Assembly: GCA_964583525.1 (NCBI GenBank)
Contig: CAZOXD010000004.1
Coordinates: 1,909 to 65,908 of the forward strand
Length of the DNA stretch: 64,000 nt
From: an uncultured Pseudomonadota bacterium
GTDB taxonomy: Bacteria > SAR324 > JACQKK01
Direction: 5' to 3'
Shown: positions 16,279 to 29,979 of the stretch, one piece after another
Layout of the letters: every line of letters begins with the position of its first letter
Numbering within the stretch: position 1 is the stretch's first letter
Notes under the pieces: generated by a model
The model's database searches: none
Seen by the model: only the letters and a program-made list of their open reading frames with translations
Told to the model about the DNA's origin: nothing
Made by a program: the position numbers and the translations under genes

Positions 16279-17445
16279 ATGACAACAGGACTTCGAGCTA
16301 AGACAATTCTGGACGGAGATTGGGCCTTAGAATTCCATGACTTCTCCGCGGCCTGGGCAATGGCACCATTGCGCCCGGAAGGTAGGCAGAAGGGAGAGGG
16401 CATTGCCGTGGTTCATCCGGATACTGGATACACGGAGCATCCGGAACTCATGGACGGCGACCGATATCTTATCGACCCCGGTATTTCCAGAAATTTTCTC
16501 CAGGGCACTGGCTACATGCTCAGGCCCGAACTACGCCCCGCGGTCGACAATTTGACTGGCTCAAGCGCAAGTCACGGCACCAAGACGGCAAGTGTTCTTA
16601 TGAGCGCCGAAGACTTCCCGGATGAAACATTATTCCCCGACTATTCTGCGGAGAAGGCCATATGGGGTGTGGCGCCCAAAGTCGAATTGATTCCTTTCCG
16701 GGTGGCCAAATCCGTTGTGCTATCAGTCTTAAGTTCAGTAGCACTTGGGAAATCCCTCTTCTATATCGTGGATAAGCTAGATAGCAATTTGGTAGGCGTG
16801 GTCTCAATCAGCCTAGGTGGGAAGGACATCACACTTATTAATAAAGGAAAGACTCTTATAGAGCACGCCCTTCGTATTGCGCGAAAGAAGGGAATTATCG
16901 TCTGCGCGGCAGCCGGACAAATGCAGACTGACAATGAACTTGGGGATTTACTTGCGAGTCATTTCTCGCCTGCGTTTCCTGGCATAGATTCTAACACAAT
17001 ATGTGTGGCGGGATGCAAAGTAAATAAGAATTATCCAGAGGATAACTCTGAGCATTACCCGCCGATTCATTCTGGGTTCTTGGGGCCCGAAGTAGTCGTC
17101 ACTGCGGCAGCCTATGATCTATGGGTTGCAAGAGCAGCCGAAGGAGATCCCAATCCGACCTATAGTGTGGAGAGATCCTGGGGAACCTCCTATGCAACGG
17201 CAATTGTAGCTGGCGCATGCGCTTTGTGGCAGGCTTTTCATGGCAGGCAATGGTTACTAGATCCTTCCAATTATGGACCCGAATTGATTTTTCCATTGTT
17301 CAAAGAGGTGCTAAAAAGAACGGCTTTCAAGCCATCTGGGTGGGATGCCTCCAACCGCGGATTTGGAGTGTTGGATGCAAAGAAACTCTTAGAGGAGCCT
17401 TTACCGACGAAATCCGAAATCGAAGCGCTCAATAATGGAACCTAA
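16279..17445 (+). CDS. Subtilisin-like serine peptidase (S8 family), no signal peptide
   Basis: Catalytic triad motifs in D-H-S order: 'AVVHPDTGYT', 'SASHGTKTASV', 'SWGTSYATAIVAGA'. The N-terminus 'MTTGLRAKTILDGDW' has no hydrophobic leader. Confidence 0.9.
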   Translation: MTTGLRAKTILDGDWALEFHDFSAAWAMAPLRPEGRQKGEGIAVVHPDTGYTEHPELMDGDRYLIDPGISRNFLQGTGYMLRPELRPAVDNLTGSSASHGTKTASVLMSAEDFPDETLFPDYSAEKAIWGVAPKVELIPFRVAKSVVLSVLSSVALGKSLFYIVDKLDSNLVGVVSISLGGKDITLINKGKTLIEHALRIARKKGIIVCAAAGQMQTDNELGDLLASHFSPAFPGIDSNTICVAGCKVNKNYPEDNSEHYPPIHSGFLGPEVVVTAAAYDLWVARAAEGDPNPTYSVERSWGTSYATAIVAGACALWQAFHGRQWLLDPSNYGPELIFPLFKEVLKRTAFKPSGWDASNRGFGVLDAKKLLEEPLPTKSEIEALNNGT

Positions 17446-17450
17446 GAGAA

Positions 17451-20400
17451 ATGTCTAGACTCGATGATTTCTGCAAAGAGTTGATCTGGTTCGTGCAGCC
17501 GGTTGTTGAAGCTGTTGAAGACGAGGAATCGCTGAAGAGTTTTTTCTCAGAATTTGGATACGACCTGACAGGTTCAGACACAGAAATCGGGAACGCGGTC
17601 ACAGAGATTCGCGACACACTTTATCCGATTCTTCAGGGGCTAGGCACTGCTTTGGCGGACGGTTCTCTAGACTTATCAGTCCCTCAAGAACTACTTACCA
17701 CAATTAGATCAACCGGTGAAAGTCAATCGATTCAGAGCCTCATAGCCGATGCAAGCGAGTTCCCAGGCGAGCTTTTCTCGCACCTATTTTACCATTACAT
17801 TTCTACGAAGATTGGGATATTGTCCGCCCTTTTGGAGGCATTTGGCGTTATCACCATTACTAGAGTGACCACTGCGGACGCTGGCGGTAGGGACTTGGAT
17901 TACGACAAGGTGGAGCTTCACTGGGACAGGCTTGGCGTGTTCGTAACAGACAGCGGAAAGTGGGCAAAGGAAGTTTACGGTTGGGGGGCTACTCTGGATA
18001 CCGATGGCCGCATTTTCGACTATGAAAAAGCAATTGCTAGTCTGGCTCACCTGATAGAATCAACCCAATTGGTTCTCTCCCGAAAGCAAAACCTCACACC
18101 GACTGAAGCGGATTTCTTTCTCGCGAATCGCGGTGGGATAACGGTCAATGAAGTTGTTATTCCTTTTTTTCAAGATGAGTTTGAATCTGTTGATGATGCC
18201 GGAGATCCAGAATTCAGGAATGAGATTGGGCTAAAGGTTCTGCCATCGGGAGACTTGAACCAGCCGGCCAATCTGGGTTTGGCAATGGCTCCTTTCGCTA
18301 AGGGAACCCTGCCTCTCGAGATTGCGCTTTCAGATAACCTGACAATGAATTTGGTGTCTTCGGCTTCTGCTACGGGTGGCGTCTATCTTCGACTAACCCC
18401 TGACGGCGTTGAGGTAATGGGTGGAGGAGTGTTCGGAGCGGACTTCAGTTTTGGCTTCACATATAGAAATGCTGACAATTCACCTGCCGTATTGGTTGGA
18501 GGAGAGGGGCAAACTCGACTGGAGTCAAGTTCCATTGGCACCCAGAGTGGAGTTAGTATCGGATCCGGTTCGACACCAGAAGTGTTTGCGGAGTTTTTCA
18601 TCCAGGGCGGTGCCCTGGTAATCCAGGGAGGTGACGGGGACGGCTTCATCCAAAAGATTCTTCCGCAGGACCCCATCACGGTTCTGTTTGATTTGACGCT
18701 GGGTGTCTCCAACACCAAGGGCTTTTACGTCAAGGGCGGGGCAGGGCTGGAATACACCTTCCACGTCAACCAGGAAATCGGCCCAATATTCATCGGCACG
18801 ATCGATCTCGCGATTTTCTTAAAGGACGGGAACATCGAACTCAATACCGCGCTGTCCGCCGGAGCCAGCCTGGGGCCGATTAAGGCCTCGGTATCCAAGA
18901 TCGGGCTGAAGGCTCTGCTGGAGCCGGGCAAAAAGGGATTGTTGGGATTTGCCGACCTCTCTTTGGGCTTTAAACCGCCGACGGGGATCGCGCTGGGAAT
19001 CGACCCTCCGCCGGTCAGGGGCGGAGGCGGGATCTTCATCGACCCGCCCAACTACACGGGCATCCTCAACTTGACGATCGAGGAGACCGTTGACGTTACG
19101 GCGATCGGCCTGTTGACCACGGAGATGCCCGGGGGCCAGCCGGGTTTCTCGCTGCTGATCTCCCTCTCCGCGCGCTTCTCGCCGATCCAACTCAGCTTCG
19201 GCTTTGCGCTCACCGGCGTGGGCGGGCTGATCGGCATCAATCGGACGATGCTGGAGGAGCCGCTGCGCGATGCCTTCAAGCGGCACACACTGGACTACAT
19301 CCTGTTCCCGGAAGACCCCATTTCCGATGCGGCGCTGATCATAGACGCGATCCAGTCCGTCTTTCCTCCGCGCGAGGACCGCTTCGTCATCGGACTGATG
19401 GGCGAGATCATCTGGGGCTCGGCGACACCGCTGGTCGTGTTCAACTTCGGTGTCATCATCGAACTGGGCGGCCCGGGGCTGGTCGTCCTTATTGGGCAGG
19501 GGTCCACAGCACTGCCGACGAAAGAAACGCCCGTCGTGGAGATCAATGTGGACCTGCTCGGCTTCATTGACCTGGGCGCCGAGACCGTTGCCATTGACGC
19601 GGAACTCTACGATTCGCGTATCACCGTCTACCCCCTAAGCGGGGAGATGGCCTTGCGTAGCGGCTGGGGCAGCGAGGCGGACTTCATTTGGTCGATGGGT
19701 GGATTTCATCCGCGCTTCAACCCGCCGCCCGGTTTCCCCAGGCTGGACCGCCTGATGATCAGCCGCGACCTTGGCGTGGTCTACATGTCGCTGGAGTGCT
19801 ATCTGGCCATTACGACCAATACCTTTCAGGTGGGTGCGCTGCTGTCCATCGATGGCGATTTTGGAGTGGCCTCCGCCAAAGGCGGGACGTCCTTCGATAC
19901 GTTGATCAAGTTCAGCCCGTTCTCCTTTGACGTGGATTTTAAGCTGTGGCTTGACCTGAAGGTAGCGGGCGCTCAGGTGGCCGAACTGGACGTATCTTTG
20001 AATCTGACGGGTCCGAATCCGTTCCACGCGATCGGCTATGCCCATTTTTCCATGCTGTTCATTTCGGTGGACGTGGACGTGGATATCACGATGGGAGAGC
20101 GCATCCCGGCGCCGCCGCCCGAGGTCTCCCCGTTCGACAAGGCGCTCGAGGCCTTCCAGGACGTGCGCAGCCTAGTGTTCGAGCTGCCGGACTGGGCCAG
20201 TTCTCACGTATCGTTGCTGGGCGCCGATCCCTCGCTGCAACTGGAGGGACCTGCAGTCACGCCTAAATTGCTGGACCCGGCGGGGAGTGCTGTGGTCTCG
20301 CAGGGCACTATGCCGCTGGCGCTACGGCTGGATCGCGTCGGAGGCGGGACACCGCCCGCAAACGAGCGCTACCTGGAGCTGATCACCGCGCTGCCGTCCG

Positions 20401-29629: not shown

Positions 29630-29670
29630 CCGCATGCGACAGTTAAACCAACCTCGGCAGGGTGAATTCC

Positions 29671-29979
29671 ATGCGGCGAACAAACTTACCTCGCGCCCTC
29701 GTCTTGACAGCTCTGGTGTCACTGGCGGTGCTTATAATCGGGATTTTCATCTTTTCGATGTTCATCGGGGTATTCATTGCTATAGCACTGATGGTTCCGT
29801 TCATCGGTCTGTGGGTAAAGCGGAGGTATCCTGGCGGATTCCATGCCCACATCGTTATCGGGCGCTCGGATTCGGTGCCGAAGAGATGCGGGAAGCCACA
29901 GGCGATTCCGGGCCTCGAATCAGACATCGAGGCGTCTAACAAACAGGTGCGCCCGTCGATCACAAAGGGCAATTCATAA
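29671..29979 (+). CDS. Small two-TM membrane protein
   Basis: 'LVLTALVSLAVLIIGIFIFSMFIGVFIAIALMVPFIGLWV' gives two hydrophobic spans. It lies 41 nt after the operon's last gene (alternative GTG start at 29662). The overlapping frame 29634-29939 looks non-coding. Confidence 0.5.
   Translation: MRRTNLPRALVLTALVSLAVLIIGIFIFSMFIGVFIAIALMVPFIGLWVKRRYPGGFHAHIVIGRSDSVPKRCGKPQAIPGLESDIEASNKQVRPSITKGNS

Follow-up and report, generated by a model that had tools for sequence, protein, structure and literature searches.

Several described systems come close to the locus reported here. Tc toxins consist of several giant subunits (1000-2500 aa) encoded in one operon, have neither ATPases nor signal peptides, combine a conserved delivery part with a hypervariable enzymatic payload, and are sporadic and horizontally transferred, with variable surface-binding inserts on their large subunits. 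In polymorphic toxins (Rhs, CDI, MafB and others; Zhang et al. 2012, PMC3482391), enzymatic cassettes are recombined against a conserved trafficking part, spare payload genes stand in tandem arrays, and Het-C is an established toxin domain of those that use injection machines. Among defence systems, CBASS, Lamassu, Avs and IetAS (an ATPase with an S8 protease) have interchangeable protease or phospholipase effectors, no immunity gene, and seats in defence islands. The injection systems eCIS and T6SS occur in bacteria and haloarchaea with diverse cargo, including PLD and M23-type enzymes, that has no Sec signals. Our locus, or the gene module to which it belongs, shares each of these traits, the seat in a defence island being that of the copy studied here. 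One of its proteins also contains a full-length member of Pfam DUF6603 (PF20248), a family without assigned function in Pfam and unmentioned in the literature searched, whose model spans only ~560 aa of one of five modules.

The locus lies in a 64,000-nt stretch of DNA from an uncultured bacterium (the window), where ORF calling placed four co-directional genes at 16279-29629 for an S8 subtilase followed by 2122-, 1470- and 463-aa proteins. The spacers between successive genes are 5, 2 and 3 nt, i.e., the genes are as tightly coupled as an earlier reading of the bare letters (the sequence-only reading) had described, and synteny across ~85 loci established that they are a real, conserved and coupled unit. 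That reading was right about the unit but not about its four parts: the modules number five, two of them (A and B) being held by the 2122-aa protein. The operon exemplifies U-A-B-C-D, a five-module system that is widespread and uncharacterised. Its features are:

16279..17445, + strand: U, 388-aa S8 subtilase (Pfam PF00082, E=7e-17; orthologue alignment)
17451-23819, + strand: fused A-B protein, 2122 aa (ORF)
17451..18590, + strand: A N-terminal region, ~aa 1-380/400 (GC3 change point; co-variation with U)
18765..20453, + strand: DUF6603 core of A, aa 439-1001 (Pfam PF20248, E=3.4e-113)
20895..20930, + strand: Pro-rich linker FADPPPPPQAAP, aa 1149-1160 (limits of the A-homologue and B-homologue alignments)
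20959..23819, + strand: B portion, aa ~1170-2122 (blastp and HMM matches to separate B proteins)
22563..22658, + strand: Trp-flanked hydrophobic helix in B, aa 1705-1736 (Kyte-Doolittle)
23822..28234, + strand: C, 1470 aa (homologues, alignment)
28238..29629, + strand: D, 463 aa (homologues, AF2 model)
29662..31721, + strand: downstream ORFs outside the conserved module (without homologues beside other loci)

All peptide strings quoted in the sequence-only reading are present where it had placed them, and those that it called conserved-looking are family-wide motifs in multiple alignments. Walker A, HExxH, HKD and DEAD motifs are absent from all four operon proteins, in agreement with the earlier view that enzymatic and NTPase motifs cannot be detected in the giant proteins.

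The A-B-C-D order is fixed in ~85 loci from many bacterial phyla (Bacteroidota, Actinomycetota, Acidobacteriota, Myxococcota, Gemmatimonadota, Nitrospinota, Chloroflexota, Firmicutes and Proteobacteria) and from haloarchaea, with median gaps of -4 nt (A-B), +11 nt (B-C) and +3 nt (C-D), and some loci lie on plasmids and recombinase-flanked islands. Carriage by phages was seen in 0/50,697 phage genomes and confirmed in none of 2.9 million viral contigs. No signal peptides were found in U, A, B, C or D, and the surroundings of the module revealed no conserved ATPase, lysis cassette or secretion gene and no conserved immunity-like neighbour. Several homologues carry additional domains: two LTD copies (Pfam), TIG and collagen G-X-Y repeats in D, the BGTF surface domain in C of two haloarchaea and VCBS repeats in B (both by PGAP annotation), and Kelch in A. 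Together with the PG_binding, Big_2 and PKD domains that occur among U proteins, these additions point to action outside the cytoplasm.

U in the window is a subtilase with an intact D/H/S triad (HPDTGY at aa 46, SHGT at aa 98, GTSYA at aa 302), as had been claimed, and its D48, H99 and S304 align with D32, H64 and S221 of subtilisin. The lack of a signal peptide was likewise confirmed, and a prodomain is also absent. Gln stands in for the oxyanion-hole Asn (AAAGQ at aa 210), as it does in the Alkalimarinus orthologue (39-46% identity), a change that suggests, at the level of sequence, a slow, specialised protease. Of 77 loci, 63 have a co-directional gene no more than 400 nt upstream of A, usually abutting or overlapping it, and these genes sort into at least eight unrelated clusters plus singletons. 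A Pfam census of 57 of them gave PhoD-like (6), M64 (5), NAL1/trypsin-like (4-5, vs. 12 loci by sequence cluster), S8 (3), PLD (2), M23 (2), M14 (1) and Het-C (1) proteins. Nuclease, NADase and deaminase payloads were not seen among them. Peptidases of one class or another make up about two thirds of the U proteins that were classified. The pairing of a protease with a scaffold noted in the window is a family-wide theme. In some loci two or three U paralogues stand in tandem, and several loci have no U. These data show that U is a hypervariable gene for a hydrolytic enzyme that precedes A-B-C-D.

The earlier assignment of the central region of the 2122-aa protein to DUF6603 proved correct, with a Pfam match over the full profile. 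This core is rich in Gly and beta-strands, holds GGFHPRFNPPPGFPRLDRL at aa 750 (nt 19698-19754), has >=553 relatives in GTDB species genomes, and is 60-80% identical even where U types differ. The region preceding it is mostly helical and matched only generic helical bundles when its profile was compared with the PDB. We measured its co-variation with U over 58 loci at fixed core identity. In locus pairs with cores 60-80% identical, identity over the N-terminal 400 aa of A is 41-48% where both loci have the same type of U but only 23-25% where the U types differ, and the two identity curves meet at aa ~480-520. In the window, GC3 is 0.48 before and 0.79 after codon 379 of A (support 376-414; 2*dlnL=139.5), and the A N-terminus finds its best match in Alkalimarinus, which has an S8-type U as in the window, while the A core is closest to that of a Nitrospinota locus with a different U. 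These results show that recombination exchanges U and the first ~400 aa of A as one piece, and that the GC3 jump at codon ~379 is a recombination scar, the low-GC3 cassette comprising the S8 gene and the A N-terminal region. We infer that this region is a U-specific adaptor; A variants that lack it also lack an upstream U, and at one short-A locus an S8 peptidase is coupled downstream of D instead. Physical association is supported by a U-A fusion (P0162, alpha/beta-hydrolase plus DUF6603) and by the A-B fusion of the window.

Regarding the latter, alignments of A homologues cover aa 1-1040 of the 2122-aa protein and those of B homologues aa 1170-2100, and the B portion matches ~74 separately encoded B proteins (size ~1000 aa) by blastp and HMM. 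Every other locus examined encodes A and B separately, in different frames or in the same frame with a stop codon between them. By these alignments, two genes that are usually separate have been fused to encode the 2122-aa protein, an arrangement seen only in the window, and the Pro-rich linker noted earlier marks the joint. B gave nothing by Pfam or PDB profile search; the alignment pairs its N-terminal LVFLSYYRRGL motif with YxFLPWLRxG, the family consensus. The Trp-flanked hydrophobic helix that the sequence-only reading had picked out is present, in the variable middle of B, with hydrophobicity that is weak in this copy (Kyte-Doolittle 19-residue mean 1.78). A strong hydrophobic segment (means of 2.4-3.6), often two adjacent helices forming a hairpin, occupies the equivalent site in 21-26 of 65 B homologues, and ~60% have no such segment.

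C homologues number 34 by word-index search and 72-81 in the fetched loci, and are 1400-2300 aa long, with insertion points that differ among them. The C motifs LFPLRLELR and GPNPYGLLPV correspond to LLPVRxETRF and GxQPYGLLP in the family alignment. The reading frame of C stays open upstream of its ATG, back to TTG 23663. C had no Pfam, NCBIfam or PADLOC match, and its PDB profile search gave low-complexity noise only. The one weak Baseplate_J match, in a single C homologue, falls within an insertion that is specific to its lineage and absent from window C. D is beta-rich, with a conserved N-terminal helix (DPLWMLGRQWQ) and the string PHPRWWTFE, and belongs to a family of ~450-600-aa proteins with >371 homologues found and 5,221 clusters at 50% identity (E<=1e-3); it also had no Pfam, NCBIfam or PADLOC match. 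Structural comparison (AF2 and Foldseek) covered D and C aa 1-1000. The D model (pLDDT 81, pTM 0.76) found no counterpart in the PDB, where the best E was 0.15, or in BFVD, where the best E was 0.017 at a probability of 0.03; the C model (pLDDT 70.5) found none in the PDB. Thus, the A-D core has no PADLOC match, no PDB sequence match and, for D and C aa 1-1000, no Foldseek match. The statement of the sequence-only reading that the operon cannot be matched to any named defence system, Tc toxin or eCIS was borne out within the same scope (Pfam, PADLOC, and Foldseek for D and C aa 1-1000).

Downstream of D lie ORFs for three proteins, of 102/105 aa (2-TM), 339 aa (two TM helices at the N-terminus) and 220 aa, with GC3 of 0.57-0.65 vs. 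~0.8 for A-core to D, without a Pfam, NCBIfam or PADLOC match and without homologues beside any other U-A-B-C-D locus. The small 2-TM gene (29662/29671-29979) is a real ORF, as noted earlier, but not a member of the conserved module (0 of ~85 independent loci); it recurs only in L001, which is another assembly of this sequence and has the four operon genes at identical lengths. Pfam confirms the flanking defence genes (DrmE_C/helicase/MZB, PNP with nSTAND3, SNF2 with Eco57I methylase, AbiU2), and DUF6602 is also among those of the window. The defence role deduced from these neighbours, however, does not generalise: the flanks of 63 other loci are miscellaneous with few PADLOC matches, and several lie among housekeeping genes. 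Some flanks match AbiEi, CBASS-type cyclase, CARF, mads or PDC models, the closest relative of the window operon adjoins a methylase and an HATPase_c_3 gene (downstream), and two Streptomyces loci have as neighbours an RHS toxin gene and genes for Tle-like lipases (DUF2235, PLD).

Huge conserved proteins that travel with an interchangeable enzyme resemble a delivery complex rather than a proven phage-defence system, and we tentatively favour the view that the module may be a new enzyme/toxin delivery or display complex without an ATPase. A-B-C-D would assemble as one large complex, in which the A N-terminal domain would dock its cognate enzyme; if that domain is a docking adaptor, U would be the payload. 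The hydrophobic element of B may serve membrane association or insertion, and C and D, which in other lineages gain Ig-like, lamin-tail, collagen-like and surface domains, may touch the target surface. Most likely, the complex would present a degradative enzyme, be it a protease, lipase, phosphoesterase or cell-wall hydrolase, beyond the producer's cytoplasm or deliver it there, for antagonism or enzyme display, in a manner perhaps analogous to Tc/ABC or binary toxins with unrelated parts. Without ATPase and signal peptides, release would need lysis or some other route. Several observations count against delivery: the B element is absent in ~60% of homologues and weak in the window, the window copy sits inside a dense defence island and its closest relative beside a methylase and an HATPase_c_3 gene, signal peptides are absent, and conserved ATPase, lysis and secretion genes are missing from the surroundings. 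The lack of nuclease, NADase and deaminase payloads and of immunity genes also sets the module apart from classical interbacterial polymorphic toxins. The sequence-only reading had instead cast the subtilase as a maturation or trigger protease that cleaves a giant protein and so activates a structural or pore-forming scaffold. The prevalence of peptidases among U proteins, the tight translational coupling and the oxyanion change are in keeping with this; yet U is missing from several loci, one conserved substrate would have to suit peptidases from five unrelated catalytic classes, and a conserved cleavage is impossible where PLD, PhoD-like phosphatase, Het-C or an alpha/beta-hydrolase fusion replaces U. 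A dedicated maturation role is therefore very improbable, and the inclusion of non-proteases, swapped as a cassette with the A N-terminus, favours payload or effector over processing protease.

Effector swapping is common in the defence systems CBASS, Lamassu and Avs, which counts for anti-phage abortive infection, in which an A-B-C-D sensor scaffold, cytoplasmic or membrane-bound, would restrain a self-destructive U until infection; freed U would degrade host proteins, membrane or wall from within, the B hairpin giving wall-acting enzymes holin-like access. The window copy between DISARM-like loci, the PNP+STAND pair, AbiU2 and DUF6602, the genes beside its closest relative, the AbiEi-to-PDC matches in some flanks, the missing signal peptides and immunity genes, and plasmid and recombinase-flanked island carriage all fit. 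We nevertheless consider it rather unlikely, given that none of the five proteins matches PADLOC or has an NTPase, nuclease or nucleic-acid-binding domain, that most of the 63 other neighbourhoods are miscellaneous or housekeeping, that extracellular-type domains are unexpected on a cytoplasmic sensor, and that tandem U paralogues fit cargo better than a suicide effector. Such domains on B, C and D would suit a large cell-surface platform that displays proteases, phosphoesterases, lipases or wall hydrolases for nutrient acquisition or predation, with a cohesin-like A N-terminus and the B hydrophobic anchor tethering the complex to the cell; PhoD-like, S8, trypsin-like, M14, M23, M64 and PLD are secreted degradative enzyme families, and the module is abundant in soil/sediment degraders and predators (Chitinophagaceae, Saprospiraceae, Myxococcota, Acidobacteriota, Streptomyces). 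However, a scaffold of this kind faces the same export problem, the sporadic, mobile-element-linked spread and U/adaptor swapping are more typical of conflict systems, and RHS toxin and Tle-like lipase genes adjoin the two Streptomyces loci, which together make it quite improbable.

Set against the systems introduced at the outset, the module differs from eCIS/T6SS in that sheath, tube, baseplate, spike and AAA+ genes are absent in or near it, and from CBASS, Lamassu, Avs and IetAS in having no PADLOC match and no NTPase, cyclase or SMC-like sensor, in having homologues with extracellular-type domains, and in lying mostly outside defence islands at other loci. It lacks the RHS/YD, VRP1, SpvB and TcdB_mid domains of Tc toxins (Pfam), D and C aa 1-1000 show no Foldseek similarity to them, and, unlike them, it occurs in archaea and Gram-positive bacteria. 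In contrast to polymorphic toxins, it has no immunity gene and no known trafficking domain, and as payloads it has not nucleases, deaminases and NADases but proteases, lipases and phosphoesterases. Finally, the Tc payload is a C-terminal tip held in a cocoon and the variable part of polymorphic toxins is likewise a C-terminal tip, whereas the module encodes its payload in a gene of its own upstream of A, paired with a putative adaptor at the A N-terminus, and its variable part lies at the 5' end.

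The subtilase operon of the window is a copy of a conserved, co-translated set of four large proteins, here called A (the DUF6603 protein), B, C and D, plus an interchangeable enzyme encoded upstream (U), the type of U being tied to the A N-terminus. The window copy had been described from sequence as a tightly spaced run of four ORFs, and both the positions and the spacing (intergenic gaps of 5, 2 and 3 nt) hold, with every peptide string picked out in that description found in the operon's proteins:

16279-17445: U, a 388-aa S8 subtilase
17451-23819: the 2122-aa protein, corresponding to A plus B
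23822-28234: C, 1470 aa
28238-29629: D, 463 aa

The subtilase call was borne out by Pfam (PF00082, 62 bits, E=7e-17), with the triad in the order D-H-S; D48, H99 and S304 align with D32, H64 and S221 of subtilisin. The oxyanion-hole Asn (N155 of subtilisin) is replaced by Gln (AAAGQ) in both the window subtilase and its Alkalimarinus orthologue, a substitution that may mean reduced or specialised activity. The DUF6603 assignment, which the sequence-only reading had offered tentatively, was correct (PF20248 in Pfam, E=3.4e-113, 379.4 bits, profile positions 1-501 of 502, aa 439-1001 of the 2122-aa protein), the score lying above the family HMM gathering score of 27 bits that defines membership. 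The 1470-aa and 463-aa proteins gave 0 matches in Pfam, NCBIfam, PADLOC and the PDB sequence set, all seven proteins from 16279 to 31721 gave 0 matches in PADLOC-DB v2 at E<=0.1, and a motif scan found Walker A, HExxH, HKD and DEAD all missing, in agreement with the absence of Walker A, helicase and HKD motifs reported earlier. A PD-(D/E)xK motif at aa 68 of C was rejected as a regex match alone, its Lys not being kept in the homologue alignment. Scans of the window for tRNA and Rfam families gave no match, and promoter and terminator signal counts were no different from those of shuffled sequence.

The partner genes of the subtilase, whose co-occurrence across genomes had been put forward for checking, occur in identical order nearly everywhere in the loci fetched, i.e., the contigs of six distant homologues and, from the GTDB species genomes, 80 loci with a DUF6603 relative, out of at least 553 such relatives there. 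In these loci A spans ~1,100-1,200 aa, B ~900-1,140 aa, C 1,360-2,300 aa and D ~440-640 aa, with median intergenic gaps of -4, +11 and +3 nt (A-B, B-C and C-D, respectively), and the hosts comprise Bacteroidota, Actinomycetota, Acidobacteriota, Myxococcota, Gemmatimonadota, Nitrospinota, Chloroflexota, Ignavibacteria, a Firmicute, Proteobacteria and haloarchaea. Cultured carriers include Alkalimarinus alittae (S8-type architecture as in the window; CP100390, ~1.52 Mb), a Streptomyces NBC strain and Salinigranum marinum. Homologues of C are rare (34 matches in a word-indexed search with the 1470-aa protein) and those of D common (more than 371 with the 463-aa protein); a full profile search places the D family at 5,221 clusters at 50% identity (E<=1e-3), or 2,048 at E<=1e-30. 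The 2122-aa protein is an A+B fusion, since A homologues align to aa 1-1040 and B homologues to aa 1170-2100, and the Pro-rich linker spotted in the sequence-only reading (aa 1149-1160) is the joint between the two. This fusion is absent from every other locus examined; apparent fusions at three loci (L012, L020 and L050) were rejected as ORF-calling artefacts because A and B occupy different frames there. At three further loci (L014, L033 and L062), either two modules stand in tandem or the order is seemingly a circular permutation that reads C-D-U-A, with B next in L033 alone. Modules were also found on megaplasmids of haloarchaea and on plasmids of Streptomyces, some of them flanked by trios of tyrosine recombinases. 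A phage origin was rejected, the DUF6603 core being found in 0 of 50,697 phage genomes and in none of the IMG/VR viral contigs.

The enzyme position is where the loci differ. In 63 of 77 loci, A is preceded at no more than 400 nt by a gene in the same direction, which mostly abuts or overlaps it, and clustering of these upstream genes gave at least eight unrelated sequence clusters and many singletons. By Pfam, one cluster, of 12 loci, consists of NAL1/trypsin-like serine peptidases; S8 subtilases occur in the window, in Alkalimarinus alittae and in a Balneolaceae MAG; and further U types are PhoD-like metallophosphatases, of which some also have PG_binding_1, M64-like peptidases, proteins containing M23, PLD, an M14 carboxypeptidase and Het-C. 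Several U families have no Pfam match. The enzymes belong to families of secreted hydrolases and of known toxin domains (proteases, lipases, phosphoesterases and peptidases of the cell wall); Het-C serves as a toxin domain in polymorphic toxins (PMC3482391). Some loci have tandem U paralogues, two or three of them, and one homologue (P0162) joins an alpha/beta-hydrolase region to DUF6603 in a single protein. Clustering of all flanking ORFs revealed no conserved small neighbour specific to any U type that would resemble an immunity gene. The subtilase had been proposed to mature or trigger the large proteins by proteolysis; however, many unrelated enzymes take its position elsewhere, so it is not a fixed maturation protease but one of many alternative payloads, and we regard the maturation role as very improbable.

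Exchange of U extends into A. We compared 58 loci. Where two loci have DUF6603 cores of 60-80% identity, the N-terminal 400 aa of A share 41-48% identity between loci of the same U type but only 23-25%, i.e., background, where the U types differ, and the two identity profiles meet at aa ~480-520 of A. The swap boundary falls at A aa ~400-500, with unrelated U types on one side and cores of 60-80% identity on the other. The window itself carries such a mosaic: GC3 is 0.48 over the subtilase gene and the first ~379 codons of A and 0.79 onward through B, C and D, with the change point at A codon 379 (support 376-414, 2*dlnL=139.5). Consistent with this mosaic, the nearest relative of the window A N-terminus is that of Alkalimarinus (39%), which has the same S8-type U, and the core has its nearest relative (50%) in a Nitrospinota locus whose U is unrelated. 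In two variants carried on plasmids, A is short, without the N-terminal region, and no U lies upstream; in one of these an S8 peptidase is coupled after D. On a Nocardia sp. NBC_01377 plasmid (NZ_CP109567; 11425-25272 of locus L097), for instance, A is 767 aa long without the N-terminal region, no enzyme gene precedes it, and a 1236-aa S8 peptidase is translationally coupled after D. From these patterns we infer that the A N-terminus is the adaptor docking its cognate enzyme.

The D model (AF2, 70 sequences; pLDDT 81, pTM 0.76) is beta-rich, with a conserved N-terminal helix (DPLWxLARQWQ) that is modelled poorly, and Foldseek found no match for it in PDB (best E 0.15) or BFVD (best E 0.017, probability 0.03). 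The model of C aa 1-1000 (AF2, 34 sequences; pLDDT 70.5) is mixed alpha/beta, again with no Foldseek match in PDB (best E 3.4). Searching PDB sequences with profiles of the four core proteins returned nothing real, and B, C and D show no homology to one another (hhalign probabilities <=0.2%). The centre of B is variable: 21-26 of 65 homologues have a strongly hydrophobic stretch there, in many cases a hairpin of two neighbouring helices, and ~60% have none; the Trp-flanked hydrophobic helix noted earlier is present in the window B but is weak compared with these strongly hydrophobic segments. Module homologues have repeatedly gained domains typical of surface or extracellular proteins, e.g., two lamin-tail domains (a haloarchaeon) or TIG domains with collagen G-X-Y repeats in D, a 'BGTF surface domain' in C (PGAP, two haloarchaea), VCBS repeats in B (Streptomyces), a Kelch propeller in A, and Big_2, PKD and PG-binding domains in U. 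No signal peptides or known trafficking domains were found in the module proteins.

The flanking defence genes that had been described around the operon were recovered by Pfam, and the surroundings of the module in the window contain the following:

2.2-10.3 kb: DrmE_C, helicase and MZB (Pfam)
10.5-13.3 kb: PNP and nSTAND3/HEAT (Pfam)
13320-16279: ~3 kb between the STAND gene and the subtilase, with short overlapping ORFs only (<=181 aa), no tRNA or Rfam match and no significant promoter or terminator signal
16007-16282: 91-aa ORF overlapping the subtilase ATG by 4 nt, not conserved at the Alkalimarinus locus
30043-31721 (+): 339-aa protein with two N-terminal TM helices and a 4-nt overlap with a 220-aa protein; neither has a family match, and homologues occur solely in a second assembly of the same sequence (L001)
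32853-33812 (+): 319-aa protein, a DnaB_C helicase domain alone (E=2e-45), standing alone in a stretch of small unannotated ORFs that separates the module from the second DISARM-like locus
37.9-44.9 kb: SNF2 and Eco57I-type methylase (Pfam)
45860-46804: AbiU2-like HEPN (Pfam)
46888-47727: DUF6602, preceding the 1745-aa helicase protein
47753-52990 (+): 1745-aa protein with DEAD/ResIII helicase, Helicase_C and a C-terminal MZB (DUF1998-type) Zn-binding domain, resembling a single-chain DrmA+DrmB-like protein
53170-54720 (+): 516-aa polymorphic-toxin-type PTPase (Tc-R-P / PTP-SAK), of the dual-specificity type, fused to an ADP-ribosylglycohydrolase (E=2.6e-67), an unusual pairing
56547-61241 (+): 1564-aa ORF with no Pfam match at E<=0.001, after a DUF4268 protein at the island's far end, a further large protein without annotation in a defence setting

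The closest relative (on ENA contig L088; its C, P0002, is 80% identical), whose module is cut off in its 5' part by the contig end, has downstream of D an N6/N4 methylase, an 838-aa HATPase_c_3 protein and a 608-aa protein (10944-16662), a trio that resembles another defence-type cluster. On plasmids of Streptomyces sp. NBC_01724 (L096, 1672-8536) and S. longwoodensis (L095, 970-4287), one module stands next to PLD-like, DUF2235, peptidoglycan-binding and Ig-like protein genes and another, of this same pair, next to an RHS-repeat toxin gene. DUF2235 is the Tle1-type lipase family, and the DUF2235 and PLD genes are Tle-like lipase genes.

It is possible that the module serves in defence, by abortive infection, as the dense defence island around the window copy, the methylase and HATPase_c_3 genes beside its closest relative, and the lack of signal peptides and immunity genes would suggest. 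However, the guilt-by-association argument made for the window does not appear to generalise to the flanks of the 63 other module loci: these neighbourhoods are miscellaneous, with most flanking proteins of unrelated function, some modules lying within housekeeping regions (between pup and pafA; following pheST-ihfA), and PADLOC matches amounting to a handful among 150 random flanking proteins (a raw count). Further, the module has no PADLOC match and no NTPase or nucleic-acid domain, and homologues of all five modules have acquired extracellular-type domains. We consider a defence role unlikely, and the defence-island setting of the window copy is probably not a general property of the family; should the module prove defensive after all, it would be a new type without an NTPase, whose effectors are proteases or lipases. 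A role in enzyme display or scavenging appears more doubtful still.

We favor the view that U-A-B-C-D is an enzyme presentation or delivery complex acting outside the producer's cytoplasm, a reading that comparison of the loci brings close to an even chance, if a shade below it. Under this model, the five proteins would form one complex, in which the A N-terminus would hold the enzyme, B would associate with or insert into a membrane, and C and D, the modules accumulating binding-type domains, would contact the target surface, such that the enzyme is presented or delivered outside the producing cell's cytoplasm. The main gap of the model is the export route: the searches turned up neither a signal peptide nor an ATPase nor a conserved lysis gene. 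More tentatively, and with the balance leaning somewhat against it, the module may represent an unrecognised class of protein-delivery or toxin complex, ATPase- and Sec-independent and present in bacteria and archaea, with four new-fold families and a swappable payload cassette of enzyme plus adaptor.

If true, this would be a major and so far unrecognised part of the biology of microbial conflict or secretion, considering that the D family exceeds 5,000 clusters at 50% identity, that at least 553 species genomes across most bacterial phyla and haloarchaea carry the DUF6603 core, and that the four core proteins resemble nothing found in PDB (by sequence and profile searches, and by the models of D and C aa 1-1000). 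The enzyme-adaptor cassette would then be a rule for loading different enzymes on one chassis, with possible use in protein delivery. For annotation, the 'DUF6603 giant protein' splits into a putative adaptor, the DUF6603 core, B, C and D. A literature search found no paper mentioning DUF6603 or PF20248, and keyword combinations gave nothing relevant.

Finally, the earlier failure to match the operon to a named defence system, Tc toxin or eCIS was upheld by Pfam, PADLOC-DB v2 and structure searches. Identity with a Tc toxin, eCIS or adhesin was rejected, there being no Pfam, NCBIfam, PDB-sequence or PDB-profile matches and no Foldseek match for D (PDB, BFVD) or C aa 1-1000 (PDB). In contrast to Tc (ABC) toxins, the module proteins have neither the RHS/YD-repeat cocoon (TcB/TcC) nor the VRP1, neuraminidase-like and TcB-binding domains of TcA in Pfam searches. 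Similarly, the sheath, tube, baseplate (gp25, gp6, Baseplate_J), spike and AAA+ ATPase of eCIS, T6SS and phage-tail-like systems are not in the operon, no such genes are conserved near 85 homologous loci, and D has no BFVD counterpart; a Baseplate_J lead was discarded, as it came from one C homologue alone (P0003, 19.3 bits, below threshold) through an insertion missing from the window protein. With polymorphic toxins, U-A-B-C-D shares a hypervariable toxin-like module swapped by recombination against a conserved part, whereas a cognate immunity gene was not found beside U, nor a recognised trafficking domain or secretion signal in the module. Tc/ABC or binary toxins come closest in proposed function, although U-A-B-C-D is not a member by sequence or tested folds, and, as far as these comparisons reach, no known system appears to have any of the four core families. 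The function proposed for it is drawn from comparative genomics alone. Swappable effectors are a known concept; what would be new is the machine and the geometry of the swap, in which the gene before A changes along with the putative adaptor at the A N-terminus.
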